Source: Trypanosoma brucei (taxonomy: Eukaryota). Taken from it: a stretch of 64,000 nucleotides of DNA. Positions within the stretch are counted from its first letter, which is position 1, and each line of letters starts with the position of its first letter. The position numbers and the translations under genes are program-made. The notes under the pieces are model-generated. The model did no database searches and was not told the DNA's origin. It worked only from the letters and a program-made list of their open reading frames with translations. The stretch lies in the NCBI GenBank assembly GCA_000002445.1, contig CM000207.1, forward strand, positions 512,001 through 576,000. The letters are read 5' to 3'. Of the stretch, positions 3,916 to 37,169 are shown piece by piece.

Positions 3916-5076
3916 TTAGATTTCACTGGGTTTCTGGACGGAGGCGACATTTTCATCTAACATTGTGGCGACATTTGCTACCTTTATATTTATTGCTGCT
4001 TGGCCGTTATCATCAGACGCGCCTGCCTCTCGTCGTTGGATAACCTTATCCCTCTCATAATCCATCATCCGGCGCAGTAGTTTACTGTAGCTTTCAAACC
4101 ATTGAAACTCCTTTGTTGTATAGTCACAGAACTTTCCTTCAGGGTTCATCAGGTACATGATGATGGAGTGGTCCACAAGATAGTCATCCTCGCTCAGTAC
4201 TGTCTCATCAGGGAGAGCAAAGTAAACGCGGTACTGACGCGCCACTGATTCCACTTCTTCCTGAGTGCCCACAAGCCCCAGAATCCGTGGGTTAAAATCT
4301 GCTAGATAATCCCGTATTTTCTCAGGTGTGTCACGGTGCGGATCGAGGGAAATAAATATGGGCTGCCAGTAGTCACGACCCACCTTCTTGTCAAGGTGTT
4401 GAACGACACGGCTGAGCTTTGCCATCTCCTCCGGGCACACATCAGGGCAGTTGGTGAAACCAAAGTAAATGTAGAGCCACTTTCCAAGAAAGTCCTTTTC
4501 AGTGTAGCGGCGCCCATCGACGCCAATTAATGAGAAGGGCCCGCCAATGCTTGGTCCTTCGGGGCTGTCAAAAGCCTTAACCGCACGTAACTTTGGGTCG
4601 AACCGCATTTGCTCACGCCGCACACGAATAGATATGACAACTGTTATAACTCCCAGAGAAAGGAACAACAAACCCCACAGCATCCACGCGGGGCTGTCCC
4701 GCACCTCAGATAACCGCTCACTAAGTTTTCTCCGTTCCGCCTCCTCCTCTCTTTCCACATATTCTTGAAAGGTAAATATCTGTGAGTCCCTTTGCTCCGC
4801 CACGCGAATGTGAATAGGTTTTTCCTTGTCCACAACGTCAATATCTTTTCCACCACCAGTGCCTCCAGTTGAGTGACGTCTCATCATACTAATGGTTATC
4901 ACATCAACCTGGTGAGAAACCGGCCGAGGAGACGCCGCCCGTATCGCCGGTGCAAATGAGGCGCTACTTCCGCATCGGTGCCTGAAAGCAACGCTGATGG
5001 TCCCGCGGTTCTGCAGTAAATTACAAGAAACACTGCAGTTGATCCCTAAATGGACGAGGTGTGAGCCGCGTATCAT
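3916..5076 (-). CDS. SCO1: SCO1/SenC-family cytochrome c oxidase assembly copper chaperone (mitochondrial)
   Basis: Thioredoxin-fold SCO motifs are present: GGPFSLIGVDGRRYTEKDFLGKWLYIYFGFTNCPDVCPEEM (CxxxCP copper site), FISLDPHRDTPEKIRDY, GLVGTQEEVESVARQYRVYF. The N-terminus is Arg-rich and presequence-like, followed by a TM helix (AWMLWGLLFLSLGVITVVISI). ATG at 5074-5076. An internal Met (MMRRHS, about residue 64) is an alternative start. Confidence 0.85.
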   Translation of the reverse strand: MIRGSHLVHLGINCSVSCNLLQNRGTISVAFRHRCGSSASFAPAIRAASPRPVSHQVDVITISMMRRHSTGGTGGGKDIDVVDKEKPIHIRVAEQRDSQIFTFQEYVEREEEAERRKLSERLSEVRDSPAWMLWGLLFLSLGVITVVISIRVRREQMRFDPKLRAVKAFDSPEGPSIGGPFSLIGVDGRRYTEKDFLGKWLYIYFGFTNCPDVCPEEMAKLSRVVQHLDKKVGRDYWQPIFISLDPHRDTPEKIRDYLADFNPRILGLVGTQEEVESVARQYRVYFALPDETVLSEDDYLVDHSIIMYLMNPEGKFCDYTTKEFQWFESYSKLLRRMMDYERDKVIQRREAGASDDNGQAAINIKVANVATMLDENVASVQKPSEI

Positions 5077-6900
5077 TTATTTTCGCACTTCCTCCTCCCT
5101 TTCAACTTTCCTTTCTCTATTCACGTGCAGTGAGGGCACCAATGTGCTTGCTTCAGTGAAGCGAAGCCGTCCCAAGATCAGTTGCTGGAGGTTGCAGACG
5201 CACGTGCACCGAACCACGGAGAATAATTATGTATAAATTGATTTATGTTGCGTGTGAGCGCGTCAAAGCAGTGGAAGAGAGATGCACTCTCCTTTTCCCT
5301 AGATGCAACTTTATACTCTCCCTTCTATTCTTAATACGTATGATGTAATTAACCTAAAGCGGCAGTGGCTCGGCACCAAAACAGGGGAGGGGGTGGGTAA
5401 AACGTGAAAGGTAAAAGGGGCAAAAAAGGAATAAATAGTACAACACACTGCAGAACAAAGAATTATCAAAAAAAAATGAAGAACAAGGGAATGAGGACGG
5501 CCGTCGAGGGAACAGAGTACAGGGGGAAAAGGATGTTAAGGGGTTCGTACACCTCATACAAGCTCCCAAGGGAAAGGGCTGAAGGCAGAGCTGAAAAATC
5601 TATATATATTAAATGCTCCTTTTTTTACTCCTTTCTTCTTCCCCCCTTTTTTCTTTTTGTCGTTTTCTCTTCCATTTCCGCTTTGCAATTCACTATGTTT
5701 GTGGTAAAACTGAAGCCGTGCACTCCAGAGAATGTCATACCATTTGCTGTTGAAACAACAACTGCTCATGAGAGAGATTGCAAATGAGGAATATGAAAAG
5801 TGAAAATAAAAAGAAACACCAACAGTGTCTCCCACGTTTGTCAGTGGGACTTCAACGGTTCCTTCATATTTCTCACAATCCATGGAATCCGAAACCCTTT
5901 TGACCTTTTCATAGTCGGTGGGTATGCCATATATGATGTATATATGCATGTATATGTATGTCCTTCATTTCGTATAAACAGTTTCACATCCTACTTGTTT
6001 CTTGCACATACATGGGTTCCCATCTTTTTGTTTTCACAGATACATTTTAAATCCCCCCTTCCTTCCTTTTCTTTCCGTCTCTTCTTTTTTTTTCTTTTTG
6101 AATTACTGTTCTTCTTCATTTATTTCACTTTTTGCTATGTTCCCTTTTCTTCTCATTCACCTATTCTTCCCTGAAAAAGAACAACTTTTCCCTGCATAAC
6201 ATTATTATTCCTGATATCATCCCCTAATTCGCTTTCATAGTCGCGGTCGGGCACACCTGTACATCCGACCACATTATGGACTCCAGCGCCCCACCAGAAA
6301 CTAGCACAGATGGCTTATTTTGGTTTGGGTGAAGTGTTCAGCATTTTTTTTCAATCCTGGAGAGAATCTCTTTGCTTTTGCTTCTCCCCCATGCACATGT
6401 ACACACGCACACATATATAATTAGAACAAAAATAAAAGAAATACAGATACTTTTCTTCTTCCTTTTTCTTTCCGCTCGATTCAACGGCATGTTTAGTTTA
6501 CCTCTCCTCGCCACATCAGAGGCAAGTCGATCCAATCGCGCTCGACCCCAGCGTTACTTTTCCTTTTTATTATCTTCCTTAGAAAAACCTATGACGACTC
6601 ACTCTTTTACTGCGGTCTTTTAGGTTCCTTCACGTTCTGGGTTCCGCTTCAAAACTTAATACCTCCCAGCGCACAGAAGTGCCAACACGGGCAGAACAAA
6701 CCCGAACGTTCTGACAGCCACCGAGTTACCCATAGTCTGTCTCACTTCCCCCATAGCCAATAGGAGGAAAAGGACAAATCAAATCTGAAAGGGAGACAAA
6801 AATGCATAATACATACAAGAATCTTCAATAATACATGCGCACATTATCCACGCGACGTACCGCCTCCAGTCACATTAGAGTCAGTAACAGTTGGAGAGGT

Positions 6901-9183
6901 TTAAGATGCCTGTTGCACAGATGCATCCTCACTGCCAAGTTCCTCAACATCATTGATACTTGGCTCATCGGCGCCCGGAGCGGCTCCAGCCGCAACGTCA
7001 TTGAAGCTCAGTTCCTCAAGTTCCGCACTCGGGAGTTTGTCTGCTGGATGTTCTGCCGCTGTGGGTGCCTCACCCTCAGGGCCCGGGATATCAGAGTTGG
7101 AACCATCTGATTTCGGGGAGTCACCACCACCCAATTGTTTCATCGTTCCCGCCAGCACTTGATCCCTTCTCACAGCGGATGCCTGTCTCGACGAAGTCTG
7201 CTGTTCTCTCCTCCCACCACGGTCAAAAAAATCATCAGCTGCTTCATTATAACCAAGCAGCGCATAACCGTAGCGCACAGCAGGATCATAGTCACACCGG
7301 ACTTCAGCAATTTCCACGCACGGTTTTCGATAATCTTCATCATCTGTATAGCCATAGTCCTCATCACCGAAGTCTTCCAAAGTCTCCACCAAACCGCTTC
7401 CGGCAAAGTTCAACTCCCACATCCTTTCGCGTCGCAACTGAACCAACCACTCGTCAATACGCAGCTTGCTCATTGATTTCGTCGTTCCACCAGTTAGAGA
7501 ATGGTAGAAGGCACAAACTGTTGGGAAGGCGCAACGCTCTAGCAACGCCTGGAGTTCCTCCTTAGGGGTGCTCTTATCGTGCTCCGTAGTGAACGACGCC
7601 TCCAGTGGGTAACCCTCAAAAGTTAGGTTGGTGAAATTCTCTTTCGGCAATCTGAGTGTCGCAGATGCGTCCTCCTTAAAAGCAGCGTCCAGATATTCAC
7701 GGTGCTCCTCATTATCAAGCACTTCCTGCCACTTATCTCCAGTGAAAAATATGTGCAGATCGGAGTACACTGTGTTCTCAATCCGGCGGCGCTTCTCCAG
7801 ATACAGTTTGTCACGACCAGCCTTCTCCAAGCAGCGGCGCCGCCACACCGTCCTTTCGTGTCGACGATCCACATCCGTGAGGAAGGCATCAAGTTGCCGC
7901 ATCTCCTCCTCATCATCTTCGGTGAACAACTCCTTCTTGCTGAGCTCCTCCATGCGTAACTGCAGTTCGCGCTTCTCCTGGTCATCCCGTTCCTCGGCAG
8001 CGAAGAGAGCCTCAAGTTCGTCAATGTCGTGCAGGTCGTTGACGGTGCGAACTGTCTGCTGCATCTTCAGTACTTCTTCAGGTTGTAGTTGAACATAGAC
8101 GGGAATCTCCTTACCCAGGAGCGTCTTGCTTTCCTTCGGCCCAAAAACAAGTAAAACGCTGTCGAGTGAAACAATATCACTCACAACGCGACCGTTCGTT
8201 GTGCGTTGTACGTAGCATCCTTCAACATTGATAGGTTCCTCTTCATCATTTAGTAGATTAAGTGGTTCTTCACCAATCAAAGCCTGCTTCTTTTCGGAAA
8301 TTTGCACCCCTAACATAGCAATCATCTCACGCAGTCCGTTGACCTCGGTGATAAGAAGAGCTTGTTCTTGGAGTTGAGCGAAGCAACCATCAACGACGCG
8401 TTCCTCCGCCTCCCGAGCTCTTGAACACGCCATCTGCACATTCAGCCACCTCCTAATAACAACTGGAAGTGGAGCACCTTGTAGCGCCTGTGAAGATGCG
8501 CCCTTTCTCTTGCTTTCTTTCAGCGATTCGGCGGGGACCAACGCAAGCTCATTCTTTATCTTCTTCCGTTGCAGTTTCGACAGCGGTGCGACCGTGCAGT
8601 CAAGTTCCATTATCCGCCCAACAAAATCACTTTGACGCATGACAATCTGCATGCTTTCCCAACTTCCATTATGATCCTCTTGTAGGGCAATCATGAGCGC
8701 GCGGACAAGTGAAAACAGTTCCTCAGATGGTCGACCCGCTGAACGTAATTCCCTCCAACTGCGCGCGGGTACTTGTTCAATCGCGGCGCGAACTTGATCA
8801 AGCTCCACCATTTGCTGACGAGTGAACGCCGCTGCAATGGCCTGTTTTTCTTGAGTTACCTCACGGGCACGGTAGAGCCGTTCAGAAGAACGATCCTCAT
8901 CCTCCACCAGCTGCTGGTATTGCTGTTGGAGCGCTTTCAGCTCGTTCAGCCCATCAAGACGATCCTGCTGCACCGCAAGTTCACCCAGTTTTTCGTCATA
9001 CGGTTCAAACCCACCAGGCACGGCATCGACACGATCGAACAATTCGACACGAACGTGCTGACTTGTGGGCAGTCCGATAACACGAGCAAGAGTATTGCTC
9101 CACTCATAATCACCGCCAATCCGTTCCAAGCAAATGTAGTCACTTACATTGACCTCCAAACACGATCTGTTCATTCCCGTCAT
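6901..9183 (-). CDS. dynein-MTBD-like (stalk/microtubule-binding-domain-like) coiled-coil protein, paralog A (760 aa) with acidic C-terminal tail
   Basis: ATG at 9181-9183. Residues ~143-265 align to the dynein heavy-chain MTBD pattern (WRELRSAGRPSEELFSLVRALMIALQED..W.SMQIVMRQSDF..RIMELD ... GAPLPVVIRRWLNVQMA). Coiled-coil segments flank this domain. Residues ~478-562 form one F.G..W..VL...AF module, the same module that is repeated in the giant neighbour. The C-terminal tail is D/E-rich (DEDYGYTDDEDY...). Confidence 0.7.
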   Translation of the reverse strand: MTGMNRSCLEVNVSDYICLERIGGDYEWSNTLARVIGLPTSQHVRVELFDRVDAVPGGFEPYDEKLGELAVQQDRLDGLNELKALQQQYQQLVEDEDRSSERLYRAREVTQEKQAIAAAFTRQQMVELDQVRAAIEQVPARSWRELRSAGRPSEELFSLVRALMIALQEDHNGSWESMQIVMRQSDFVGRIMELDCTVAPLSKLQRKKIKNELALVPAESLKESKRKGASSQALQGAPLPVVIRRWLNVQMACSRAREAEERVVDGCFAQLQEQALLITEVNGLREMIAMLGVQISEKKQALIGEEPLNLLNDEEEPINVEGCYVQRTTNGRVVSDIVSLDSVLLVFGPKESKTLLGKEIPVYVQLQPEEVLKMQQTVRTVNDLHDIDELEALFAAEERDDQEKRELQLRMEELSKKELFTEDDEEEMRQLDAFLTDVDRRHERTVWRRRCLEKAGRDKLYLEKRRRIENTVYSDLHIFFTGDKWQEVLDNEEHREYLDAAFKEDASATLRLPKENFTNLTFEGYPLEASFTTEHDKSTPKEELQALLERCAFPTVCAFYHSLTGGTTKSMSKLRIDEWLVQLRRERMWELNFAGSGLVETLEDFGDEDYGYTDDEDYRKPCVEIAEVRCDYDPAVRYGYALLGYNEAADDFFDRGGRREQQTSSRQASAVRRDQVLAGTMKQLGGGDSPKSDGSNSDIPGPEGEAPTAAEHPADKLPSAELEELSFNDVAAGAAPGADEPSINDVEELGSEDASVQQAS

Positions 9184-9802
9184 TTACCTCAATACTCGCG
9201 TATGGTTTACTCCACGTTGACACGCGTGGTCACTACCCTCGCAGCCACGTGACGCGCACGAGGAGTTTTAACAATAAAAACTTGATAACTCTCTCCTCTG
9301 CTACTTACACTCTCAAGTAAAAAATTAACACAAACTACTTCCTACCTATTACAGTCAGTGATATGCTTAAAAAGATTAATACCTTTATTCTCTTTTCCTC
9401 TTGTCCTCAGGTTTACAGGAAAATACGAAAGGAATCAATCAATCAATCAACATATAAAGAGGATCAGCATCAACACGCATGCAACAACATGATCATCCAC
9501 GAAAAAACATCACCAAAATCACGAGCAGCCGCAGCTACAATACACACACACAAACACACAGATGCGCAAAAACGTACACCGATACCACCTTTCTATATAT
9601 GTCATAAAACAAGCAGCAACAAAAAAGCAACAGAAAAGACACAAACGCACACAAACACACAGAAATTTAAAAATGTTAAAAAACAAATCCACATAAAAAA
9701 CAGCAACAATATATATGCAAAACAGCACAATCAGCACCAACGTACAGAAGCAATATAAAATATACAAACAACAAAAGCTACACACAAAAAGTCAGTAAAG
9801 CA
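7470..9802 (-). repeat. segmental tandem duplication, copy 1 (2.73 kb period): gene A 5' 1.7 kb plus 0.6 kb upstream flank
   Basis: Near-identical to 10210-12535. Offset is 2733 bp at the gene starts (9183 vs 11916). The flank 9184-9802 matches 11917-12535. Confidence 0.9.
8193..8991 (-). other. dynein stalk/MTBD-like domain within paralog A (equivalent region in paralog B at about 10930-11725)
   Basis: Same motif order as in the giant protein. The Trp marking the start of the domain is at residue 143 in both proteins. Confidence 0.55.
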
Positions 9803-10176
9803 AATTAATACGTCATAAACACATAAAACAAACAGCGTAATTGCCGACACATGACGTCACCACAAAGAAGCCGAACCAGATCCAGTGGTAAAGGAGAAAT
9901 CCCATGAATTAGGGTGGCAAACCAAAGATACAAGCAAGAAAGGTGTATAAAGATTGGATACACTTCCAACGCTAACACCATCTAACTGTGAGAAAACAAT
10001 CAGAGGTGCAATTCAATAAGAAATCGCCTGCAGCAGGTAAATAGCATTTTAAAAATGAAAATGCAAAATTAACAAATGAAAGGTTGCAAAGTTACGTAAA
10101 ACTGTTAAACTACAAGCGGTATTTAGGAATAGAAAAAAAAAATTACGACACAACGATAAAGAAACTTTTCAAGGAA

Positions 10177-11916
10177 CTATCCATCAACGTCCTCCCCTTC
10201 CACTGATTCCGTCGTTCCACCAGTTAGAGAATGGTAGAAGGCACAAACTGTTGGGAAGGCGCAACGCTCTAGCAACGCCTGGAGTTCCTCCTTAGGGGTG
10301 CTCTTATCGTGCTCCGTAGTGAACGACGCCTCCAGTGGGTAACCCTCAAAAGTTAGGTTGGTGAAATTCTCTTTCGGTAATCTGAGTGTCGCAGATGCGT
10401 CCTCCTTAAAAGCAGCGTCCAGATATTCACGGTGCTCCTCATTATCAAGCACTTCCTGCCACTTATCTCCAGTGAAAAATATGTGCAGATCGGAGTACAC
10501 TATGTTCTCAATCCGGCGGCGCTTCTCCAGATACAGTTTGTCACGACCAGCCTTCTCCAAGCAGCGGCGCCGCCACACCGTCCTTTCGTGTCGACGATCC
10601 ACATCCGTGAGGAAGGCATCAAGTTGCCGCATCTCCTCCTCATCATCTTCGGTGAACAACTCCTTCTTGCTGAGCTCCTCCATGCGTAACTGCAGTTCGC
10701 GCTTCTCCTGGTCATCCCGTTCCTCGGCAGCGAAGAGAGCCTCAAGTTCGTCAATGTCGTACAGGTCGTTGACGGTGCGAACTGTCTGCTGCATCTTCAG
10801 TACTTCTTCAGGTTGTAGTTGAACATAGACGGGAATCTCCTTACCCAGGAGCGTCTTGCTTTCCTTCGGCCCAAAAACAAGTAAAACGCTGTCGAGTGAA
10901 ACAATATCACTCACAACGCGACCGTTCGTTGTGCGTTGTACGTAGCATCCTTCAACATTGATAGGTTCCTCTTCATCATTTAGTAGATTAAGTGGTTCTT
11001 CACCAATCAAAGCCTGCTTCTTTTCGGAAATTTGCACCCCTAACATAGCAATCTTCCCACGCAGTCCGTTGACCTCGGACAGCAGCGCAGCTATTCGGTC
11101 ATGTTTCACAACCAATCGATCAGCGACGCGTTCCTCCGCCTCCCGAGCTCTTGAACACGCCATCTGCACATTCAGCCACCTCCTAATAACAACTGGAAGT
11201 GGAGCACCGCGCAACAATTTAGGGAATGAGTCACTCTTCCCTCTACGTTCTTTCAGCGATTCGGCGGGGACCAACGCAAGCTCGTTCTTTATCTTCTTCC
11301 GTTGCAGTTTCGACAGCGGTGCGACCGTGCAGTCAAGTTCCATTATCCGCCCAACAAAATCACTTTGACGCATGACAATCTGCATGCTTTCCCAACTTCC
11401 ATTATGATCCTCTTGTAGGGCAATCATGAGCGCGCGGACAAGTGAAAACAGTTCCTCAGAAGGATTGTTTATATTCCTAATAATCCTCCAACTGCGCGCG
11501 GGTACTTGTTCAATCGCGGCGCGAACTTGATCAAGCTCCACCATTTGCTGACGAGTGAACGCCGCTGCAATGGCCTGTTTTTCTTGAGTTACCTCACGGG
11601 CACGGCAGAGCCGTTCAGAAGAACGATCCTCATCCTCCACCAGCTGCTGGTATTGCTGTTGGAGCGCTTTCAGCTCGTTCAGCCCATCAAGACGATCCTG
11701 CTGCACCGCAAGTTCACCCAGTTTTTCGGCATACGGTTCAAACCCACCAGGCACGGCATCGACACGATCGAACAATTCGACACGAACGTGCTGACTTGTG
11801 GGCAGTCCGATAACACGAGCAAGAGTATTGCTCCACTCATAATCACCGCCAATCCGTTCCAAGCAAATGTAGTCACTTACATTGACCTCCAAACACGATC
11901 TGTTCATTCCCGTCAT
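10177..11916 (-). CDS. dynein-MTBD-like protein, paralog B (579 aa; tandem duplicate of A lacking the acidic tail)
   Basis: ATG at 11914-11916. About 99% nt identity to gene A over most of its length, with three short divergent patches. Homology to A ends near 10210, so B terminates early (…TGGTTESVEGEDVDG*) and has its own 3' flank (9803-10209). Confidence 0.6.
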   Translation of the reverse strand: MTGMNRSCLEVNVSDYICLERIGGDYEWSNTLARVIGLPTSQHVRVELFDRVDAVPGGFEPYAEKLGELAVQQDRLDGLNELKALQQQYQQLVEDEDRSSERLCRAREVTQEKQAIAAAFTRQQMVELDQVRAAIEQVPARSWRIIRNINNPSEELFSLVRALMIALQEDHNGSWESMQIVMRQSDFVGRIMELDCTVAPLSKLQRKKIKNELALVPAESLKERRGKSDSFPKLLRGAPLPVVIRRWLNVQMACSRAREAEERVADRLVVKHDRIAALLSEVNGLRGKIAMLGVQISEKKQALIGEEPLNLLNDEEEPINVEGCYVQRTTNGRVVSDIVSLDSVLLVFGPKESKTLLGKEIPVYVQLQPEEVLKMQQTVRTVNDLYDIDELEALFAAEERDDQEKRELQLRMEELSKKELFTEDDEEEMRQLDAFLTDVDRRHERTVWRRRCLEKAGRDKLYLEKRRRIENIVYSDLHIFFTGDKWQEVLDNEEHREYLDAAFKEDASATLRLPKENFTNLTFEGYPLEASFTTEHDKSTPKEELQALLERCAFPTVCAFYHSLTGGTTESVEGEDVDG

Positions 11917-12535
11917 TTACCTCAATACTCGCGTATGGTTTACTCCACGTTGACACGCGTGGTCACTACCCTCGCAGCCACGTGACGCGCACGAGGAGTT
12001 TTAACAATAAAAACTTGATAACTCTCTCCTCTGCTACTTACACTCTCAAGTAAAAAATTAACACAAACTACTTCCTACCTATTACAGTCAGTGATATGCT
12101 TAAAAAGATTAATACCTTTATTCTCTTTTCCTCTTGTCCTCAGGTTTACAGGAAAATACGAAAGGAATCAATCAATCAATCAACATATAAAGAGGATCAG
12201 CATCAACACGCATGCAACAACATGATCATCCACGAAAAAACATCACCAAAATCACGAGCAGCCGCAGCTACAATACACACACACAAACACACAGATGCGC
12301 AAAAACGTACACCGATACCACCTTTCTATATATGTCATAAAACAAGCAGCAACAAAAAAGCAACAGAAAAGAAACAAACGCACACAAACACACAGAAATT
12401 TAAAAATGTTAAAAAACAAATCCACATAAAAAAAAGCAACAATATATATGCAAAACAGCACAATCAGCACCAACGTACAGAAGCAATATAAAATATACAA
12501 ACAACAAAAGCTACACACAAAAAGTCAATAAAGCA
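10210..12535 (-). repeat. segmental tandem duplication, copy 2 (gene B plus flank); flank copy abuts the 3' end of the giant ORF
   Basis: See copy 1. The flank copy ends at about 12535, where the 600-bp repeat array sequence begins. The giant ORF's TGA (12525-12527) lies inside the flank-derived sequence. Confidence 0.9.
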
Positions 12536-33500: not shown

Positions 33501-36500
33501 TACCGATGACTCCCGTGGTCTAGATTCATACAGCATCCACACAGCAGTGTATGGACATTCATTAAGACGCTCATCAACATCATCCTTCTTTAGGTTGTGT
33601 GGTAGGGTTATGGTAAATTCAAGTTTTAGCATTTCCTCGCTGTAACTCACCACCAAGTCCTGCACCTGTTCCTCATTAAGTTGCAACTGAGCAGCCGTTT
33701 CTTTGGTAAAGGCACTTACGACATCAGGTTTCCTCTTCTCCAAAACATAATCCCAGTCCTCACCCTCAAATTCCACGTGGTGTTGCGTAACCGTTTCTGT
33801 TGCAGAAGATGAATCCTCCATCATAGCCGCACGTGCAGCGGAAGCACGTGGCACATATAGTGACCACACTTCAGAGAAGGGACATGCAGCAAGGGTACTT
33901 AATATATCAGCATCATTTAATGAGCACCCAATGACTTTATAATCAATCAACAGACTTCCGAGTCGGCAATCAATGATAACCACCTGCTGTGGAGAGACAC
34001 CGAGAGCACGCGCAGCGTCATTACGGAATGCGTTCTCCAACCCTTCACGATCACCACTAAGCACAAGATCCCAATCATCTCCCTCAAATTTCTCTGTCAA
34101 TACCGATGACTCCCGTGGTCTAGATTCATACAGCATCCACACAGCAGTGTATGGACATTCATTAAGACGCTCATCAACATCATCCTTCTTTAGGTTGTGT
34201 GGTAGGGTTATGGTAAATTCAAGTTTTAGCATTTCCTCGCTGTAACTCACCACCAAGTCCTGCACCTGTTCCTCATTAAGTTGCAACTGAGCAGCCGTTT
34301 CTTTGGTAAAGGCACTTACGACATCAGGTTTCCTCTTCTCCAAAACATAATCCCAGTCCTCACCCTCAAATTCCACGTGGTGTTGCGTAACCGTTTCTGT
34401 AGCAGAAGATGAATCCTCCATCATAGCCGCACGTGCAGCGGAAGCACGTGGCACATATAGTGACCACACTTCAGAGAAGGGACATGCAGCAAGGGTACTT
34501 AATATATCAGCATCATTTAATGAGCACCCAATGACTTTATAATCAATCAACAGACTTCCGAGTCGGCAATCAATGATAACCACCTGCTGTGGAGAGACAC
34601 CGAGAGCACACGCAGCGTCATTACGGAATGCGTTCTCCAACCCTTCACGATCACCACTAAGCACAAGATCCCAGTCATCTCCCTCAAATTTTTCTGTCAG
34701 TACCGATGACTCCCGTGGTCTAGATTCATACAGCATCCACACAGCAGTGTATGGACATTCATTAAGACGCTCATCAATATCATCCTTCTTTAGGTTGTGT
34801 GGTGGGGTTATGGTAAATTCAAGTTTTAGCATTCCCTCGCTGTAACTCACGACCAAGTCCTGCACCTGTTCCTCATTAAGTTGCAACTGAGCAGCCGTTT
34901 CTTCGATAAAGGCATTCACGACTTCATTTTTTTTGTTGTGAATCGAAGTGTACCATTCTTTTCCTGCGAAATGTTTGGTGTGTTTTTTACTTTCTAATAT
35001 TAATTTGTTGTAATTTACTGGGTTTTTTTCGTTATAGAAGTTCCAAAGCCGTGGGTATTGGTGCTGAAGTATTTGGTGTTTTATTCTCTCCGGTGACTTT
35101 TTATTGTCGTATACGCTGTATTCGACTTGTAGATTGTGATCAGTTGCGTGCATGTTAGTGACAACGATTTTTTCGGTTTTCACTTCCAGTGCTGTTGATG
35201 TTTCGTGCAAAAATATGTCGTGTATTTTTTCTTTATCGTGGAGCATTTTGTATTTCCATTCTGTACCCATGAAGCTTCTCTTGTATTTAATTTTTTTGTA
35301 CGCGGTATATTTTTTGTAAATGGCGGTCGTTTGTGGGTATTCGTAGCTGTGTATGTTGTTGCCAGAATCATTGCTTTTCTTTATTCCCTTGCTCACAACA
35401 TATTCGACGTGAAGTCTGCTTGTTGCTAATATTTTTGTTACATATACATCGGCCGTACTGGCTAACCAGTGAAGATTGTAAATATCTGTTTCTGCTGCTT
35501 TTTTCACTTCATACTTGTGGTCATCAGCAATAGTTTTCCAGTCGTCACCTCTCAACGTGAAATTATGCAGTGACATATTTTTGCATTCTTCTTCATATAG
35601 TCTTCTGAGCAATGGGTAGTTGTATTCTGCGACTGCAGCCCTCAAGTCGTTTTGTGTCATAGAGTTGTCATGCTGTAATTCCGCCTGAATTATCAAGCAG
35701 TTTTGTTCCTCGTTGTAAGAAGAATGAGTGACTATTACATTACTTTTGGGCACACCCACCGCTGTTCCTGTCTCGACACAAAATGTGTGCTCAATGTCAG
35801 CTTGCCTAAAGTAGAGGATAACCTCCCAATCTTTCCCTGCGTATTCACGGCGCACCACACCGATAGTACCAGAAGGGATATTATCTACGGAGTGCGTTGT
35901 GGGTATAAATATCCCCTCGCTAATGTCCATCTCTTCTTGTTCTGATTTCCCCCGTCTACTGTTCGCTAACCGCTGCATCATAACGGTATCAAGATATCTA
36001 ATACAGGGTTCCTCGAGAGAGTACAGGTTATCCCCCCCTAGCAGTTCTTGTGAACCAAGTACCACGAGCACATTCTTTCGCAAAACGATGATGCTATAGT
36101 TTGTTGGCACCCACGTGTAGAAGGCAGGTAGCAGATATTCTTTGTTCTCCGCCCCGGCAAAACTCTGCCGGTACCTCTCTAGCGCTAAGTCTTTCGGGGC
36201 CGAGTGTTCTTCTGCCCTTGCGGGCTGCATCGAATCCCCCTCTTGCGTCTCCGTCTCTTCACCACCCCCAAATCCCATCTGCCTGTAAGCACGCAATTCC
36301 TCATTAACCTTGTCCAGTTGGGTTTGATACATCCCCATAGAGTACTGCTGCTTCTGAATGTCATTCATAACGTCAGCCAATACGCGCTTTTGTTCTTCCA
36401 TAATATCCTCTGCAGTAACCTTCTCCTTCACTGCATGGCATATGTCTAATTGAGCGAGCGTCCAGTAGTATATGGGTCCCATTGCCCTGCTGCCGTCTAC

Positions 36501-37169
36501 AGCCCGATCGTAGCAGAAGCTACGCCTACTCACGCAATCCCGCAAAATGAAATTACATCTCTCAATAGACAGTTCTTCGTCTGCAGAGAATTCTAGAATG
36601 CGCGCGCGAAAGTGCTGATGGCGTAACACACTCTGCATTTGTGGCCACGTTTTGGCTCCATCCTCACTCAGTAACAACATCACCGCGCGGAGGATAGTTG
36701 TTACCATCTTGGGTGGTGAACGATACGACTTCAGCTCATTCCAATGGTTGTACGAAATCGACTCAACATCGCAGCGGGCAGCAGACACTGCGGCGCGGGA
36801 CTGCATCAAGTGCGCCTCAGCTGCTGAACTAGTTCTCATCAATTCAGCTCGTGCGTTGCGAAGAGACTCGGTAAGCTCGGCCGCTCGCCGTAAGCACTGT
36901 TCAAACCCCTTCTTCGATTCTTCTACTTTACGCAGCATAGCGCCTCTCTCCCCAATGACGGTGGTGCCGCTGTTATCATCATCAACCAATTCCCACCTCC
37001 GCTCCCACAGCTGTATTTCAGCATCCTGGGCGTAAGGGGCTGACACTACCTGCCCCAGCGTCCAGTTGATTCCTCCACTATCGTCATTGGTCAGTACCAA
37101 CGCAACCACATCACCCGGTTTAATGGACCGAATGTCTGTACTGCACGTTAACGTTCTCTCTTGCATCAT
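12525..37169 (-). CDS. giant repetitive protein (8214 aa): N-terminal dynein-MTBD-like stalk domain followed by 37 tandem 200-aa repeats
   Basis: Uninterrupted 24,645-nt ORF. ATG-ATG at 37164-37169, preceded by an in-frame stop at 37215-37217. TGA stop at 12525-12527. The N-terminal ~760 aa are unique and include the MTBD-like region (aa ~143-253: WNELKSYRSPPKMVTTILRAVMLLLSEDGAKTWPQMQSVLRHQHFRARILEFSADEELS...AMGPIYYWTLAQL). The remainder is a 600-bp repeat array. Confidence 0.85.
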   Translation of the reverse strand: MMQERTLTCSTDIRSIKPGDVVALVLTNDDSGGINWTLGQVVSAPYAQDAEIQLWERRWELVDDDNSGTTVIGERGAMLRKVEESKKGFEQCLRRAAELTESLRNARAELMRTSSAAEAHLMQSRAAVSAARCDVESISYNHWNELKSYRSPPKMVTTILRAVMLLLSEDGAKTWPQMQSVLRHQHFRARILEFSADEELSIERCNFILRDCVSRRSFCYDRAVDGSRAMGPIYYWTLAQLDICHAVKEKVTAEDIMEEQKRVLADVMNDIQKQQYSMGMYQTQLDKVNEELRAYRQMGFGGGEETETQEGDSMQPARAEEHSAPKDLALERYRQSFAGAENKEYLLPAFYTWVPTNYSIIVLRKNVLVVLGSQELLGGDNLYSLEEPCIRYLDTVMMQRLANSRRGKSEQEEMDISEGIFIPTTHSVDNIPSGTIGVVRREYAGKDWEVILYFRQADIEHTFCVETGTAVGVPKSNVIVTHSSYNEEQNCLIIQAELQHDNSMTQNDLRAAVAEYNYPLLRRLYEEECKNMSLHNFTLRGDDWKTIADDHKYEVKKAAETDIYNLHWLASTADVYVTKILATSRLHVEYVVSKGIKKSNDSGNNIHSYEYPQTTAIYKKYTAYKKIKYKRSFMGTEWKYKMLHDKEKIHDIFLHETSTALEVKTEKIVVTNMHATDHNLQVEYSVYDNKKSPERIKHQILQHQYPRLWNFYNEKNPVNYNKLILESKKHTKHFAGKEWYTSIHNKKNEVVNAFIEETAAQLQLNEEQVQDLVVSYSEGMLKLEFTITPPHNLKKDDIDERLNECPYTAVWMLYESRPRESSVLTEKFEGDDWDLVLSGDREGLENAFRNDAACALGVSPQQVVIIDCRLGSLLIDYKVIGCSLNDADILSTLAACPFSEVWSLYVPRASAARAAMMEDSSSATETVTQHHVEFEGEDWDYVLEKRKPDVVSAFTKETAAQLQLNEEQVQDLVVSYSEEMLKLEFTITLPHNLKKDDVDERLNECPYTAVWMLYESRPRESSVLTEKFEGDDWDLVLSGDREGLENAFRNDAARALGVSPQQVVIIDCRLGSLLIDYKVIGCSLNDADILSTLAACPFSEVWSLYVPRASAARAAMMEDSSSATETVTQHHVEFEGEDWDYVLEKRKPDVVSAFTKETAAQLQLNEEQVQDLVVSYSEEMLKLEFTITLPHNLKKDDVDERLNECPYTAVWMLYESRPRESSVLTEKFEGDDWDLVLSGDREGLENAFRNDAARVLGVSPQQVVIIDCRLGSLLIDYKVIGCSLNDADILSTLAACPFSEVWSLYVPRASAARAAMMKDSSSATETVTQHHVEFEGEDWDYVLEKRKPDVVSAFTKETAAQLQLNEEQVQDLVVSYSEEMLKLEFTITPPHNLKKDDIDERLNECPYTAVWMLYESRPRESSVLTEKFEGDDWDLVLSGDREGLENAFRNDAARVLGVSPQQVVIIDCRLGSLLIDYKVIGCSLNDADILSTLAACPFSEVWSLYVPRASAARAAMMKDSSSATETVTQHHVEFEGEDWDYVLEKRKPDVVSAFTKETAAQLQLNEEQVQDLVVSYSEEMLKLEFTITLPHNLKKDDIDERLNECPYTAVWMLYESRPRESSVLTEKFEGDDWDLVLSGDREGLENAFRNDAARVLGVSPQQVVIIDCRLGSLLIDYKVIGSSLNDADILSTLAACPFSEMWSLYVPRASAARAAMMKDSSSATGTVTQHHMEFEGEDWDYVLEKRKPDVVSAFTKETAAQLQLNEEQVQDLVVSYSEEMLKLEFTITPPHNLKKDDIDERLNECPYTAVWMLYESRPRESSVLTEKFEGDDWDLVLSGDREGLENAFRNDAARVLGVSPQQVVIIDCRLGSLLIDYKVIGCSLNDADILSTLAACPFSEMWSLYVPRASAARAAMMKDSSSATETVTQHHVEFEGEDWDYVLEKRKPDVVSAFTKETAAQLQLNEEQVQDLVVSYSEEMLKLEFTITPPHNLKKDDVDERLNECPYTAVWMLYESRPRESSVLTEKFEGDDWDLVLSGDREGLENAFRNDAARVLGVSPQQVVIIDCRLGSLLIDYKVIGCSLNDADILSTLAACPFSEMWSLYVPRASAARAAMMKDSSSATGTVTQHHVEFEGEDWDYVLEKRKPDVVSAFTKETAAQLQLNEEQVQDLVVSYSEEMLKLEFTITPPHNLKKDDIDERLNECPYTAVWMLYESRPRESSVLTEKFEGDDWDLVLSGDREGLENAFRNDAARVLGVSPQQVVIIDCRLGSLLIDYKVIGCSLNDADILSTLAACPFSEVWSLYVPRASAARAAMMEDSSSATETVTQHHVEFEGEDWDYVLEKRKPDVVSAFTKETAAQLQLNEEQVQDLVVSYSEEMLKLEFTITLPHNLKKDDVDERLNECPYTAVWMLYESRPRESSVLTEKFEGDDWDLVLSGDREGLENAFRNDAARALGVSPQQVVIIDCRLGSLLIDYKVIGCSLNDADILSTLAACPFSEMWSLYVPRASAARAAMMEDSSSATETVTQHHVEFEGEDWDYVLEKRKPDVVSAFTKETAAQLQLNEEQVQDLVVSYSEEMLKLEFTITLPHNLKKDDIDERLNECPYTAVWMLYESRPRESSVLTEKFEGDDWDLVLSGDREGLENAFRNDAARALGVSPQQVVIIDCRLGSLLIDYKVIGCSLNDADILSTLAACPFSEVWSLYVPRASAARAAMMKDSSSATETVTQHHVEFEGEDWDYVLEKRKPDVVSAFTKETAAQLQLNEEQVQDLVVSYSEEMLKLEFTITLPHNLKKDDIDERLNECPYTAVWMLYESRPRESSVLTEKFEGDDWDLVLSGDREGLENAFRNDAARVLGVSPQQVVIIDCRLGSLLIDYKVIGCSLNDADILSTLAACPFSEVWSLYVPRASAARAAMMEDSSSATETVTQHHMEFEGEDWDYVLEKRKPDVVSAFTKETAAQLQLNEEQVQDLVVSYSEEMLKLEFTITLPHNLKKDDIDERLNECPYTAVWMLYESRPRESSVLTEKFEGDDWDLVLSGDREGLENAFRNDAACALGVSPQQVVIIDCRLGSLLIDYKVIGCSLNDADILSTLAACPFSEMWSLYVPRASAARAAMMKDSSSATETVTQHHVEFEGEDWDYVLEKRKPDVVSAFTKETAAQLQLNEEQVQDLVVSYSEEMLKLEFTITPPHNLKKDDIDERLNECPYTAVWMLYESRPRESSVLTEKFEGDDWDLVLSGDREGLENAFRNDAARALGVSPQQVVIIDCRLGSLLIDYKVIGCSLNDADILSTLAACPFSEVWSLYVPRASAARAAMMEDSSSATETVTQHHVEFEGEDWDYVLEKRKPDVVSAFTKETAAQLQLNEEQVQDLVVSYSEEMLKLEFTITLPHNLKKDDVDERLNECPYTAVWMLYESRPRESSVLTEKFEGDDWDLVLSGDREGLENAFRNDAARVLGVSPQQVVIIDCRLGSLLIDYKVIGCSLNDADILSNLAACPFSEMWSLYVPRASAARAAMMEDSSSATETVTQHHVEFEGEDWDYVLEKRKPDVVSAFTKETAAQLQLNEEQVQDLVVSYSEEMLKLEFTITPPHNLKKDDIDERLHECPYTAVWMLYEPRPRESSVLTEKFEGDDWDLVLSGDREGLENAFRNDAARVLGVSPQQVVIIDCRLGSLLIDYKVIGCSLNDADILSTLAACPFSEMWSLYVPRASAARAAMMEDSSSATETVTQHHVEFEGEDWDYVLEKRKPDVVSAFTKETAAQLQLNEEQVQDLVVSYSEEMLKLEFTITLPHNLKKDDIDERLNECPYTAVWMLYESRPRESSVLTEKFEGDDWDLVLSGDREGLENAFRNDAARVLGVSPQQVVIIDCRLGSLLIDYKVIGSSLNDADILSTLAACPFSEMWSLYVPRASAARAAMMKDSSSATGTVTQHHMEFEGEDWDYVLEKRKPDVVSAFTKETAAQLQLNEEQVQDLVVSYSEEMLKLEFTITLPHNLKKDDVDERLNECPYTAVWMLYESRPRESSVLTEKFEGDDWDLVLSGDREGLENAFRNDAARVLGVSPQQVVIIDCRLGSLLIDYKVIGCSLNDADILSTLAACPFSEMWSLYVPRASAARAAMMKDSSSATETVTQHHVEFEGEDWDYVLEKRKPDVVSAFTKETAAQLQLNEEQVQDLVVSYSEEMLKLEFTITPPHNLKKDDIDERLNECPYTAVWMLYESRPRESSVLTEKFEGDDWDLVLSGDREGLENAFRNDAARVLGVSPQQVVIIDCRLGSLLIDYKVIGCSLNDADILSTLAACPFSEVWSLYVPRASAARAAMMKDSSSATETVTQHHVEFEGEDWDYVLEKRKPDVVSAFTKETAAQLQLNEEQVQDLVVSYSEEMLKLEFTITPPHNLKKDDIDERLNECPYTAVWMLYESRPRESSVLTEKFEGDDWDLVLSGDREGLENAFRNDAARVLGVSPQQVVIIDCRLGSLLIDYKVIGCSLNDADILSTLAACPFSEMWSLYVPRASAARAAMMKDSSSATETVTQHHVEFEGEDWDYVLEKRKPDVVSAFTKETAAQLQLNEEQVQDLVVSYSEEMLKLEFTITLPHNLKKDDIDERLNECPYTAVWMLYESRPRESSVLTEKFEGDDWDLVLSGDREGLENAFRNDAARVLGVSPQQVVIIDCRLGSLLIDYKVIGCSLNDSDILSTLAACPFSEMWSLYVPRASAARAAMMKDSSSATETVTQHHVEFEGEDWDYVLEKRKPDVVSAFTKETAAQLQLNEEQVQDLVVSYSEEMLKLEFTITPPHNLKKDDIDERLNECPYTAVWMLYESRPRESSVLTEKFEGDDWDLVLSGDREGLENAFRNDAARVLGVSPQQVVIIDCRLGSLLIDYKVIGCSLNDADILSTLAACPFSEVWSLYVPRASAARAAMMKDSSSATETVTQHHVEFEGEDWDYVLEKRKPDVVSAFTKETAAQLQLNEEQVQDLVVSYSEEMLKLEFTITPPHNLKKDDIDERLNECPYTAVWMLYESRPRESSVLTEKFEGDDWDLVLSGDREGLENAFRNDAARVLGVSPQQVVIIDCRLGSLLIDYKVIGRSLNDSDILSTLAACPFSEMWSLYVPRASAARAAMMKDSSSATGTVTKHYVGFEGEDWDYVLEKRKPDVVSAFTKETAAQLHLNEEQVQDLVLSYSEEMLKLEFTITPPHNLKKDDIDERLNECPYTAVWMLYESRPRESSVLTEKFEGDDWDLVLSGDREGLENAFRNDAARVLGVSPQQVVIIDCRLGSLLIDYKVIGCSLNDADILSTLAACPFSEMWSLYVPRASAARAAMMKDSSSATETVTQHHVEFEGEDWDYVLEKRKPDVVSAFTKETAAQLQLNEEQVQDLVVSYSEEMLKLEFTITPPHNLKKDDIDERLHECPYTAVWMLYEPRPRESSVLTEKFEGDDWDLVLSGDREGLENAFRNDAARVLGVSPQQVVIIDCRLGSLLIDYKVIGSSLNDADILSTLAACPFSEVWSLYVPRASAARAAMMEDSSSATETVTQHHVEFEGEDWDYVLEKRKPDVVSAFTKETAAQLQLNEEQVQDLVVSYSEEMLKLEFTITLPHNLKKDDIDERLNECPYTAVWMLYESRPRESSVLTEKFEGDDWDLVLSGDREGLENAFRNDAARVLGVSPQQVVIIDCRLGSLLIDYKVIGCSLNDADILSTLAACPFSEVWSLYVPRASAARAAMMKDSSSATETVTQHHVEFEGEDWDYVLEKRKPDVVSAFTKETAAQLQLNEEQVQDLVVSYSEEMLKLEFTITLPHNLKKDDVDERLNECPYTAVWMLYESRPRESSVLTEKFEGDDWDLVLSGDREGLENAFRNDAARALGVSPQQVVIIDCRLGSLLIDYKVIGCSLNDADILSTLAACPFSEVWSLYVPRASAARAAMMKDSSSATETVTQHHVEFEGEDWDYVLEKRKPDVVSAFTKETAAQLQLNEEQVQDLVVSYSEEMLKLEFTITLPHNLKKDDVDERLNECPYTAVWMLYESRPRESSVLTEKFEGDDWDLVLSGDREGLENAFRNDAARALGVSPQQVVIIDCRLGSLLIDYKVIGCSLNDADILSNLAACPFSEVWSLYVPRASAARAAMMEDSSSATETVTQHHVEFEGEDWDYVLEKRKPDVVSAFTKETAAQLQLNEEQVQDLVVSYSEEMLKLEFTITPPHNLKKDDIDERLHECPYTAVWMLYEPRPRESSVLTEKFEGDDWDLVLSGDREGLENAFRNDAARVLGVSPQQVVIIDCRLGSLLIDYKVTGCSLNDADILSTLAACPFSEVWSLYVPRASAARAAMMEDSSSATETVTQHHVEFEGEDWDYVLEKRKPDVVSAFTKETAAQLQLNEEQVQDLVVSYSEEMLKLEFTITLPHNLKKDDVDERLNECPYTAVWMLYESRPRESSVLTEKFEGDDWDLVLSGDREGLENAFRNDAACALGVSPQQVVIIDCRLGSLLIDYKVIGCSLNDADILSTLAACPFSEVWSLYVPRASAARAAMMEDSSSATETVTQHHVEFEGEDWDYVLEKRKPDVVSAFTKETAAQLQLNEEQVQDLVVSYSEEMLKLEFTITLPHNLKKDDIDERLNECPYTAVWMLYESRPRESSVLTEKFEGDDWDLVLSGDREGLENAFRNDAARALGVSPQQVVIIDCRLGSLLIDYKVIGCSLNDADILSTLAACPFSEMWSLYVPRASAARAAMMEDSSSATETVTQHHVEFEGEDWDYVLEKRKPDVVSAFTKETAAQLQLNEEQVQDLVVSYSEEMLKLEFTITLPHNLQKDDIDERLHECPYTAVWMLYEPRPRESSVLTEKFEGDDWDLVLSGDREGLENAFRNDAACALGVSPQQVVIIDCRLGSLLIDYKVIGCSLNDADILSTLAACPFSEVWSLYVPRASAARAAMMEDSSSATETVTQHHVEFEGEDWDYVLEKRKPDVVSAFTKETAAQLQLNEEQVQDLVVSYSEEMLKLEFTITLPHNLKKDDVDERLNECPYTAVWMLYESRPRESSVLTEKFEGDDWDLVLSGDREGLENAFRNDAARVLGVSPQQVVIIDCRLGSLLIDYKVIGCSLNDADILSTLAACPFSEVWSLYVPRASAARAAMMKDSSSATETVTQHHVEFEGEDWDYVLEKRKPDVVSAFTKETAAQLQLNEEQVQDLVVSYSEEMLKLEFTITLPHNLKKDDIDERLNECPYTAVWMLYESRPRESSVLTEKFEGDDWDLVLSGDREGLENAFRNDAARVLGVSPQQVVIIDCRLGSLLIDYKVIGSSLNDADILSTLAACPFSEMWSLYVPRASAARAAMMEDSSSATETVTQHHVEFEGEDWDYVLEKRKPDVVSAFTKETAAQLQLNEEQVQDLVVSYSEEMLKLEFTITLPHNLKKDDIDERLNECPYTAVWMLYESRPRESSVLTEKFEGDDWDLVLSGDREGLENAFRNDAARVLGVSPQQVVIIDCRLGSLLIDYKVIGSSLNDADILSTLAACPFSEVWSLYVPRASAARAAMMEDSSSATETVTQHHVEFEGEDWDYVLEKRKPDVVSAFTKETAAQLQLNEEQVQDLVVSYSEEMLKLEFTITLPHNLKKDDIDERLNECPYTAVWMLYESRPRESSVLTEKFEGDDWDLVLSGDREGLENAFRNDAARVLGVSPQQVVIIDCRLGSLLIDYKVIGSSLNDADILSTLAACPFSEMWSLYVPRASAARAAMMKDSSSATETVTQHHVEFEGEDWDYVLEKRKPDVVSAFTKETAAQLQLNEEQVQDLVVSYSEEMLKLEFTITLPHNLKKDDIDERLNECPYTAVWMLYESRPRESSVLTEKFEGDDWDLVLSGDREGLENAFRNDAARVLGVSPQQVVIIDCRLGSLLIDYKVIGCSLNDADILSTLAACPFSEVWSLYVPRASAARAAMMKDSSSATETVTKHYVGFEGEDWDYVLEKRKPDVVSAFTKETAAQLHLNEEQVQDLVLSYSEEMLKLEFTITPPHNLKKDDIDERLNECPYTAVWMLYELRPRESSVLTEKFEGDDWDLVLSGDREGLENAFRNDAARVLGVSPQQAVIIDCRLGSLLIDYKVIGCSLNDADILSTLAACPFSEMWSLYVPRASAARAAMMKDSSSATGTVTKHYVGFEGEDWDYVLEKRKPDVVSAFTKETAAQLHLNEEQVQDLVVSYSEEMLKLEFTITPPHNLKKDDIDESLHECPYTAVWMLY
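12529..34895 (-). repeat. tandem array of 37 x 600-bp coding repeats (>95% identical), internal to the giant ORF
   Basis: Exact 600-bp periodicity. It is visible as identical antisense 90-aa ORFs at 12973+600k, k=0..36. Each unit encodes two ~100-aa modules (FEGEDWDYVLEKRKPDVVSAFTKE... and FEGDDWDLVLSGDREGLENAFRND...). Variation is limited to a few biallelic sites shuffled among units. Confidence 0.95.
34896..35700 (-). repeat. degenerate A/T-rich ancestral copies of the ~100-aa module preceding the homogenised array
   Basis: The protein shows F.G.EW/F.GDDW modules (FAGKEWYTSIHNKKNEVVNAF..., FMGTEWKYKMLHDKEKIHDIF..., TLRGDDWKTIADDHKYEV...). At nt level they share little identity with the array, and the sequence is T-rich on the + strand. 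Confidence 0.6.
36270..36917 (-). other. dynein heavy chain stalk/MTBD-like domain (CC1-MTBD-CC2) within the giant ORF
   Basis: By-eye alignment to the canonical dynein MTBD ([55 protein letters not shown]...ACGPMVKWAIAQL) gives near-colinear matches. Helix-rich coiled-coil flanks lie on both sides. Confidence 0.6.

Follow-up and report, generated by a model that had tools for sequence, protein, structure and literature searches.

Introduction

The tandem gene arrays of Trypanosoma brucei are homogenised within the genome and form subspecies-specific mosaics when T. b. brucei and T. b. gambiense are compared (Jackson, 2007, PMC1855330; Jackson et al., 2010, PMC2854126). Those surveys dealt with arrays of more than three copies, and the pair NOP66/NOP86 is absent from the main text of both papers (the supplementary tables were not searched). 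Here, we analyse this tandem pair. It is located in a stretch of 64,000 nucleotides (nt) of the T. brucei genome (GenBank assembly GCA_000002445.1, contig CM000207.1, positions 512,001 to 576,000 of the forward strand), which we term the window. All coordinates refer to the window, and the features of the pair and of its neighbour GB4 are all on the minus strand. Unlike in the surveyed arrays, divergence between the two copies is confined to three islands of 24–45 nt in a single structural module (the island termed P1 is accompanied by two single changes 22–25 nt beyond it). Probably, an old duplication has been homogenised by ongoing gene conversion while these islands escaped it.

Paralogs which stay different at selected sites despite gene conversion are reportedly known from other systems, e.g., human RHD/RHCE and the red/green opsins, cases said to be treated by Innan (2003) and Teshima & Innan (2004). 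These resemble the present pair in near-identity over most of the unit and in sharply bounded divergent segments. They differ in one respect: for the NOP66/NOP86 islands a neutral persistence through heterology is equally possible.

The published TbNOP86/NOP66 pair comprises the same genes as those considered here. Their original description by Boucher and colleagues in 2007 (J Biol Chem 282:13780) reportedly named both isoforms. NOP66 and NOP86 have been presented as a paralog pair with largely identical coding sequences (CDS) and distinct 3' untranslated regions (3'UTRs) which drive differential expression (PMC11405848). Tb09.160.1180 is listed as a 'nucleolar protein' (PMC2771046). TbNOP86 is nucleolar, associates with the mitotic spindle and is required for mitotic progression (PMC6144804, PMC2727004); a 2024 paper called its mechanistic role not elucidated. 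The product of the adjacent GB4 gene marks the posterior plus ends of microtubules (PMC5397161; PMC13544905).

The duplicated units

Gene A (CDS 6901–9183) encodes 760 amino acids (aa) with a predicted mass of 86.2 kDa and is 100% identical to XP_803559.1 of strain TREU927, i.e., TbNOP86 (Tb09.160.1160). Gene B (CDS 10177–11916) is the short paralog NOP66 (Tb09.160.1180), an intact open reading frame (ORF) of 579 aa and a predicted 66.5 kDa; its product, from Met4 onward, matches XP_803561.1 of T. b. brucei TREU927 exactly. The published primers for quantitative PCR (qPCR) of TbNOP86 each have one perfect match, at 7159–7178 and 7210–7229, in the unique tail of A. The predicted masses fit the names NOP86 and NOP66. 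Exact protein identity, the mapping of the primers to A, the agreement in mass and the location next to GB4 identify the two copies as the annotated and already described T. brucei gene pair NOP66/TbNOP86. By its proteins, the window represents chromosome 9 of T. b. brucei TREU927 or an identical sequence.

A repeat scan and local and global alignments delimit unit A at 7471–9802 and unit B at 10201–12535. The offset from A to B is 2730 nt, and 2733 nt beyond a 3-nt indel; every indel between the units keeps the reading frame. Over 2332 aligned nt the units differ by 78 substitutions, which corresponds to 96.7% identity overall. The distribution is highly uneven. Three patches totalling 130 nt hold 67 of the substitutions, the remaining 2202 nt only 11 (99.5% identity). 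An earlier, sequence-only reading of the stretch had given about 99%.

Each unit consists of an upstream flank of 619 nt and the first ~570 codons of the ORF. The flank (9184–9802 in A, 11917–12535 in B) is non-coding and has 3 differences; a duplicated upstream flank of ~0.6 kb had been noticed before. Unit A contains a relic of the GB4 end, the flank and NOP86 codons 1–571. Unit B contains the last 8 nt and the stop codon of GB4, 0.6 kb of intergenic/UTR sequence and NOP66 codons 1–572. The flank of NOP86 opens with TGCTTTAC TGA (9792–9802), a copy of the final GB4 codons and stop (ending ML Y and stop; 12525–12535). Thus, the homogenised unit begins at the very end of the GB4 CDS and includes a copy of the GB4 3'UTR. 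The units are separated by a unique spacer of 398 nt (9803–10200), composed of the last 7 codons and the stop of NOP66 followed by T-rich, 3'UTR-like sequence; it has no homolog within the 64-kb window.

Homology of B to A ends at 10201, and the ORF of B stops seven codons further on (EGEDVDG, then stop). B is devoid of the acidic tail of A (6901–7470), just as the sequence-only reading had stated. The coordinates given in that reading need small corrections; the start of B, for instance, is 10201 and not 10210. Its designation of B as a truncated second copy is to be abandoned: gene B is intact and annotated (XP_803561.1), the short form is conserved, and it is known as NOP66 with a 3'UTR of its own.

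Three islands of divergence

Alignment of the copies establishes the tandem duplication with sharply mosaic, gene-conversion-like divergence as real, and the three short blocks formerly described as wholly different between otherwise near-identical copies are located as P1, P2 and P3. P1 extends over 8324–8393 in A (VVDGCFAQLQEQALLIT ... EM), with a core of 45 nt at 8349–8393 and adjacent changes at 8324 and 8327, and over 11054–11123 in B (VADRLVVKHDRIAALLS ... GK; core 11079–11123). P2 has 36 nt in A (8479–8514, SKRKGASSQALQ) and 39 nt, i.e., one codon more, in B (11209–11247, RRGKSDSFPKLLR). P3 has 24 nt in both copies, at 8728–8751 in A (ELRSAGR-P) and at 11461–11484 in B (IIRNINN-P); here the previous position, 8690–8745 in A, was slightly off.

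The clustering is far beyond chance. When the 78 differences were placed at random 5000 times, the fullest window of 24, 36 or 45 nt received at most 8–10, compared with observed maxima of 20–25. The paired A and B patches are 17–44% identical, the level of unrelated sequence, and in no pair is one version the reverse complement of the other. Even where a residue is unchanged inside of the patches, the two copies differ in its codon (CGT/AGG for R, CTA/TTG for L, CCA/CCT for P, TCT/TCA for S). This indicates an old divergence rather than selection on a few residues of a young copy.

Which version is the ancestral one? P1 and P3 are A-like in all orthologs, from T. congolense to the most distant kinetoplastid family members found. 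The P1 motif VVDxCFAEQQEQ is kept in all orthologs; B has ADRLVVKHDRIA instead. Since every ortholog carries A-like sequence at these positions, the B-type version of P1 and P3 is derived and fast-evolving. P2 is a variable basic loop which cannot be polarised by orthologs.

Outside of the patches the coding differences are 8 nonsynonymous and 2 synonymous. The nonsynonymous changes are D63A, Y104C, E286G, M287K, H385Y, T471I, K569E and M571V. Judged by the orthologs, it is the B-type cassette or the short gene which carries the derived residue in the first six cases. For the other two, K569E and M571V, which are at the breakpoint, the orthologs do not resolve the ancestral state.

Small inversions, or copying from sequence close by, were considered as the source of the patches. 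This idea was dropped, as neither an 11-mer scan nor local alignment gave anything above chance-level matches on the two strands of the window.

Probable concerted evolution in two strains and two species

The T. b. gambiense DAL972 assembly matches the window collinearly and shows the same two-copy structure. Exact-protein look-ups for other strains, A and B among the queries, returned no additional contigs. Comparing the copies between strains, which covers TREU927 and DAL972 only, reveals 7 sites at which both TREU927 copies differ from both DAL972 copies. Seven strain-specific sites common to both copies require conversion. Only 4 sites track gene position in the two strains, and 3 of these are within 10 nt of the unit edges. 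Homogenisation reaches into the non-coding flank, where 3 of 619 nt differ.

T. congolense IL3000 possesses a long gene of 767 aa, a short gene of 578 aa and a partial short gene, consecutively numbered. The C-terminal ends of the short forms in the two species are only a few codons apart. The core proteins are 93.8% identical within T. brucei and 96.0% within T. congolense, and 66–70% identical between the species. Thus, at the protein level the paralogs are closer within a species than the orthologs are between species, although the duplication would be older than the split. This is the pattern of concerted evolution.

Between the long and the short protein of T. congolense there are 26 residue differences, 23 of them internal. 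Five differences are at aa 147–151, the position of P3, and 15 together with a two-residue indel are at aa 214–237, the position of P2. The remainder are 3 scattered single changes and 3 at the C-terminal breakpoint. In other words, 20 of the 23 internal differences coincide with the T. brucei P3 and P2 positions; P1 differs in T. brucei only. In T. vivax and T. cruzi, where 10 kb to each side of the gene were covered, a single long copy is present. The simplest history would be that the gene was duplicated once in an ancestor shared by T. brucei and T. congolense and that the copies have been homogenised continually ever since.

The partial short copy of T. congolense (292 aa; the three genes are P0011, P0002, P0012 = TCIL3000_9_680, 9_670, 9_660) has a C-terminus identical to that of the short form, yet has the residue of the long form at one marker, R457. 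T. congolense may have an array of three copies, or its copies may undergo conversion as well.

These comparisons bear on the proposal that the duplication is recent and that local hypermutation or strong diversifying selection produced clustered multi-nucleotide change in a microtubule-binding module. The ratio of 8 nonsynonymous to 2 synonymous coding differences outside of the patches would fit, as would the derived states in the variant cassette or short gene and the location of the patches in functionally sensitive parts of a dynein-like microtubule-binding domain (MTBD; see below). We regard the proposal as unlikely: the duplication is not young, because T. congolense has the long plus short arrangement too; selection at the protein level does not explain identical residues with different codons inside of the patches; and the strain-specific sites shared by both copies call for conversion.

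Could the pair be an assembly artefact, i.e., two alleles or mis-sorted reads laid out in tandem? The units are 99.5% identical outside of the patches, a short-read assembly of T. equiperdum collapses the pair with runs of N at P3 and at the unit junction, and TREU927 and DAL972 disagree on which gene carries which patches. Against these points, two independent assemblies, those of TREU927 and DAL972, each contain two copies with the unique 398-nt spacer and dissimilar 3' ends, the arrangement recurs in T. congolense, and in the literature the genes figure as paralogs which are expressed separately and differ in their 3'UTRs. An artefact is thus extremely improbable.

The T. equiperdum contig (L002, CZPT02000760.1) merges NOP66 and NOP86 into a chimeric 598-aa 'nucleolar protein' with B-type patches, B-specific single changes and the A tail; its N gaps (445–454, 1540–1560) are exactly at P3 and at the unit junction. 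As a third strain for phasing the patches this collapsed and gapped scaffold was uninformative. A further oddity is a 4.4-kb Logan contig (L003, run ERR7929157) in which the NOP86 tail (99.5% identical from window position 7414 downstream) is joined to an ORF on the opposite strand which encodes an unrelated coiled-coil protein of 912 aa. The junction at 3070 corresponds to window position 7414, 57 nt from the duplication boundary. Chimeric assembly of the contig, an engineered line or a rearrangement could account for the join.

A possible exchange of the patches in DAL972

In DAL972 all three patches are swapped: B-type sequence is in the long gene and A-type sequence in the short one. The apparent exchange comprises 71 sites between 8324 and 8873, including the changes at 8324, 8327 and 8873 (DAL972 locus L001, 9381–14442, aligned with window 7471–12535). 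The position-specific markers 9795, 8031, 7479 and 7473 stay put.

The arrangement is either a real exchange or a misassembly in a draft Sanger assembly. If real, it would need a double crossover between direct repeats, or opposite conversions in different lineages followed by recombination. The cassette is ~300 nt away from the nearest marker on one side and ~900 nt on the other; a draft assembly could have mis-joined the flanks.

The origin of the islands

The sequence-only reading had suggested conversion of the patches from a third paralog, or diversifying selection. We looked for the donor of the B-specific patches which the former presupposes. None was found for any patch on either strand of the 64-kb window or among the distant family paralogs, GB4 included; the DNA search covered the window only. 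The N-terminus of GB4 was evaluated as a donor and rejected, with 23% protein identity and other residues at the patch positions. A protein search with the 171-aa B-type cassette was uninformative with respect to a third paralog, as even known close relatives were not returned.

More generally, a third paralog or some other ectopic sequence may have been the donor of three short tracts, transferred to the duplicate by conversion or templated repair. Sharp edges, paired sequences which are unrelated and an undisturbed reading frame are what such an import would leave behind, and B-type sequence indeed deviates from every ortholog in P1 and P3. Nevertheless, we consider an import quite unlikely. 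Apart from the missing donor in the window, the known family members, GB4 included, differ at the patch positions and, at 20–30% protein identity, are too distant to offer flanking homology for conversion. Three separate tracts would be needed. Finally, two of these positions also distinguish the T. congolense paralogs, but by other sequences.

The comparisons argue for the reverse of the earlier interpretation: the identical parts would be what was converted, and the patches what escaped. In favour of this, the T. congolense pair differs at the same two positions, the copies share strain-specific substitutions and the codons inside of the patches have diverged. The explanation which we consider likely is that the duplication is old and that gene conversion keeps homogenising the copies, except for islands which escape it. 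The duplication of NOP66/NOP86 would have preceded the split of T. brucei and T. congolense. Repeated conversion between the direct repeats would homogenise a 2.3-kb unit, i.e., the 0.6-kb 5' flank and ~570 codons, and would pass over short in-frame islands, of which T. brucei has three and T. congolense two, while continuing to act on the more conserved stretches between them. In the variant copy the islands would have diverged to saturation. NOP66 and NOP86 share their 5' processing signals and differ in their C-termini and 3'UTRs. The islands would persist either through selection for two versions or because heterology itself blocks conversion. The observations from the few sequences at hand (the same positions differ in two species, and all indels are in frame) do not distinguish between the two.

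Several points weigh against this explanation. The stretches between the patches, 85 and 213 nt long, are perfectly or almost perfectly identical, which requires short conversion tracts, or selection, between the islands. The variant patches of T. brucei and T. congolense have no resemblance to each other, and a common origin of the islands in the two species is suggested by their position alone. The T. congolense comparison, upon which the age of the duplication rests, is at the protein level only. Independent duplications with similar breakpoints in the two species would be an alternative, though an unlikely one. The exchange in DAL972, if real, means that a patch version is not tied to a gene position and complicates the picture of paralog-specific islands. 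To these points we add the restriction of the donor search to the window.

A dynein-stalk-like module

The sequence-only reading had placed the patches in and next to an MTBD-like domain, and this proved to be apt. In NOP86 a dynein-stalk-like hairpin with an MTBD is predicted at 8275–9006 (aa 60–303) by AlphaFold2 (AF2), Foldseek and profile searches against sequences of the PDB. It is composed of a CC1 helix (76–136), small helices (140–233) and a CC2 helix (239–303). Equivalent modules are predicted in NOP66 (11005–11739) and in the N-terminus of GB4 (~36200–37000). In the AF2 model of NOP86 the predicted confidence (pLDDT) is 81–92 over most of the hairpin, 73–75 in two 10-residue blocks and <50 in the loop of aa 220–232.

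A Foldseek search of the PDB returned 18 matches with E <= 0.001. All 18 are dynein structures, the best ones being stalk/MTBD entries; for 5AYH, E is 1.2e-6 and the target TM-score 0.63. A profile built from 18 family members matched dynein MTBD sequences of the PDB as well, 6KJN with E 1.1e-12, 3ERR with 2.4e-9 and 5AYH with 1.9e-8. The Pfam family 'MT' matches the N-terminus of GB4 only, and below the cut-off (21.5 versus 24 bits). Profile and structure comparisons thus argue for homology between the stalk and MTBD of dynein heavy chains and an N-terminal module which is common to NOP86/66 and GB4. We found no description of this homology for NOP86/66 or GB4 in the searchable literature.

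The likeness concerns an antiparallel coiled-coil hairpin, which is tipped by a small helical bundle, and a shared junction motif, E-[LIV]-R-S-x-x-x-P. There are obvious differences. NOP86/66 and GB4 are non-motor proteins without an AAA+ motor, and in them the module is N-terminal and is followed by FAZ1_cons domains.

All three patches map to this module. P3 is at the junction of CC1 and MTBD helix H1, where its A version aligns with dynein EIRSMVNPP. P2 is in a basic loop of low model confidence before MTBD helix H6, and P1 is at the start, i.e., the base, of stalk helix CC2. The AF2 model of NOP66 contains the same elements with slightly lower confidence over P1; this shows that the fold prediction survives the patches and has no bearing on a functional difference.

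Because of the dynein homology and the published locations of NOP86 at the spindle and of GB4 at plus ends, the module would be predicted to bind microtubules. By this analogy it plausibly explains the published spindle association of TbNOP86, and the two patch versions may differ in microtubule binding. One can go a step further and view the islands as functional switches at three points of the stalk/MTBD hairpin which could set microtubule affinity. Two hard-wired versions would be kept and the cassette could be exchangeable between the long and short genes, as the arrangement in DAL972 hints, with selection for one of each version and not for a fixed pairing with the tail. We offer this as a speculation and rather doubt it.

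C-terminal regions and neighbouring genes

The acidic C-terminal tail which is present in NOP86 only (6901–7470) has 190 aa and a pI (isoelectric point) of 4.2 and is predicted to be disordered in the AF2 model. Ahead of it is the FAZ1_cons domain (PF23398) at 7501–7770 (aa 472–561), with its NOP66 equivalent at 10231–10500. The Pfam scores are 58.2 bits for A and 58.4 bits for B at a gathering cut-off of 27.5. The region 3' of NOP86 (5077–6900; 3'UTR and intergenic sequence) contains 8 A-rich purine tracts, compared with 1 downstream of NOP66. This is in line with the 3'UTR-driven differential expression of NOP66/86 (PMC11405848).

The neighbouring GB4 gene (12525–37169) is an ORF of 24,645 nt encoding 8214 aa, with 2256 nt of unique 5' sequence followed by ~37 repeats of 600 nt. 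This agrees with the published GB4 length and layout (Tb427tmp.160.1200; PMC5397161). Tandem Repeats Finder is blind to the 600-nt period, as its period limit is 500. Pfam FAZ1_cons is found in 6 stretches of GB4, next to the weak match to the dynein MT stalk family. The N-terminus is a distant paralog of that of NOP86/66 (BLASTP against B: 23% identity over 172 aa, E 1e-12).

FAZ1_cons genes (PF23398) form a local cluster on the minus strand (261–845 and 6901–37169). It consists of GB4, NOP66, NOP86 and a 194-aa ORF beyond the SCO1 gene (3916–5076). The T. cruzi and T. vivax loci also carry small FAZ1_cons genes, which suggests an old local family.

Concluding remarks

The duplication is a known gene pair, and mosaics and concerted evolution of T. 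brucei tandem genes are also known in general. In the searchable literature on TbNOP86/NOP66 we found no description of the three islands, of their recurrence in T. congolense, of the apparent DAL972 exchange or of the dynein-MTBD homology. The island structure with its recurrence, the possible exchange and the dynein-like module therefore appear to be undescribed; they are modest additions to a known locus.

For practical work the identity of the copies has consequences. RNA interference against NOP86, qPCR and assignments by mass spectrometry cross-react with NOP66 unless aimed at the tail, the 3'UTRs or the patches. Examples of version-specific peptides are IIRNINNPSEELFSLVR and LVVKHDR.

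The recurrent islands make the pair a compact natural case for the balance of conversion and divergence. Beyond this, the dynein-like module gives a testable mechanism by which TbNOP86 would reach the spindle and GB4 the plus ends of microtubules.

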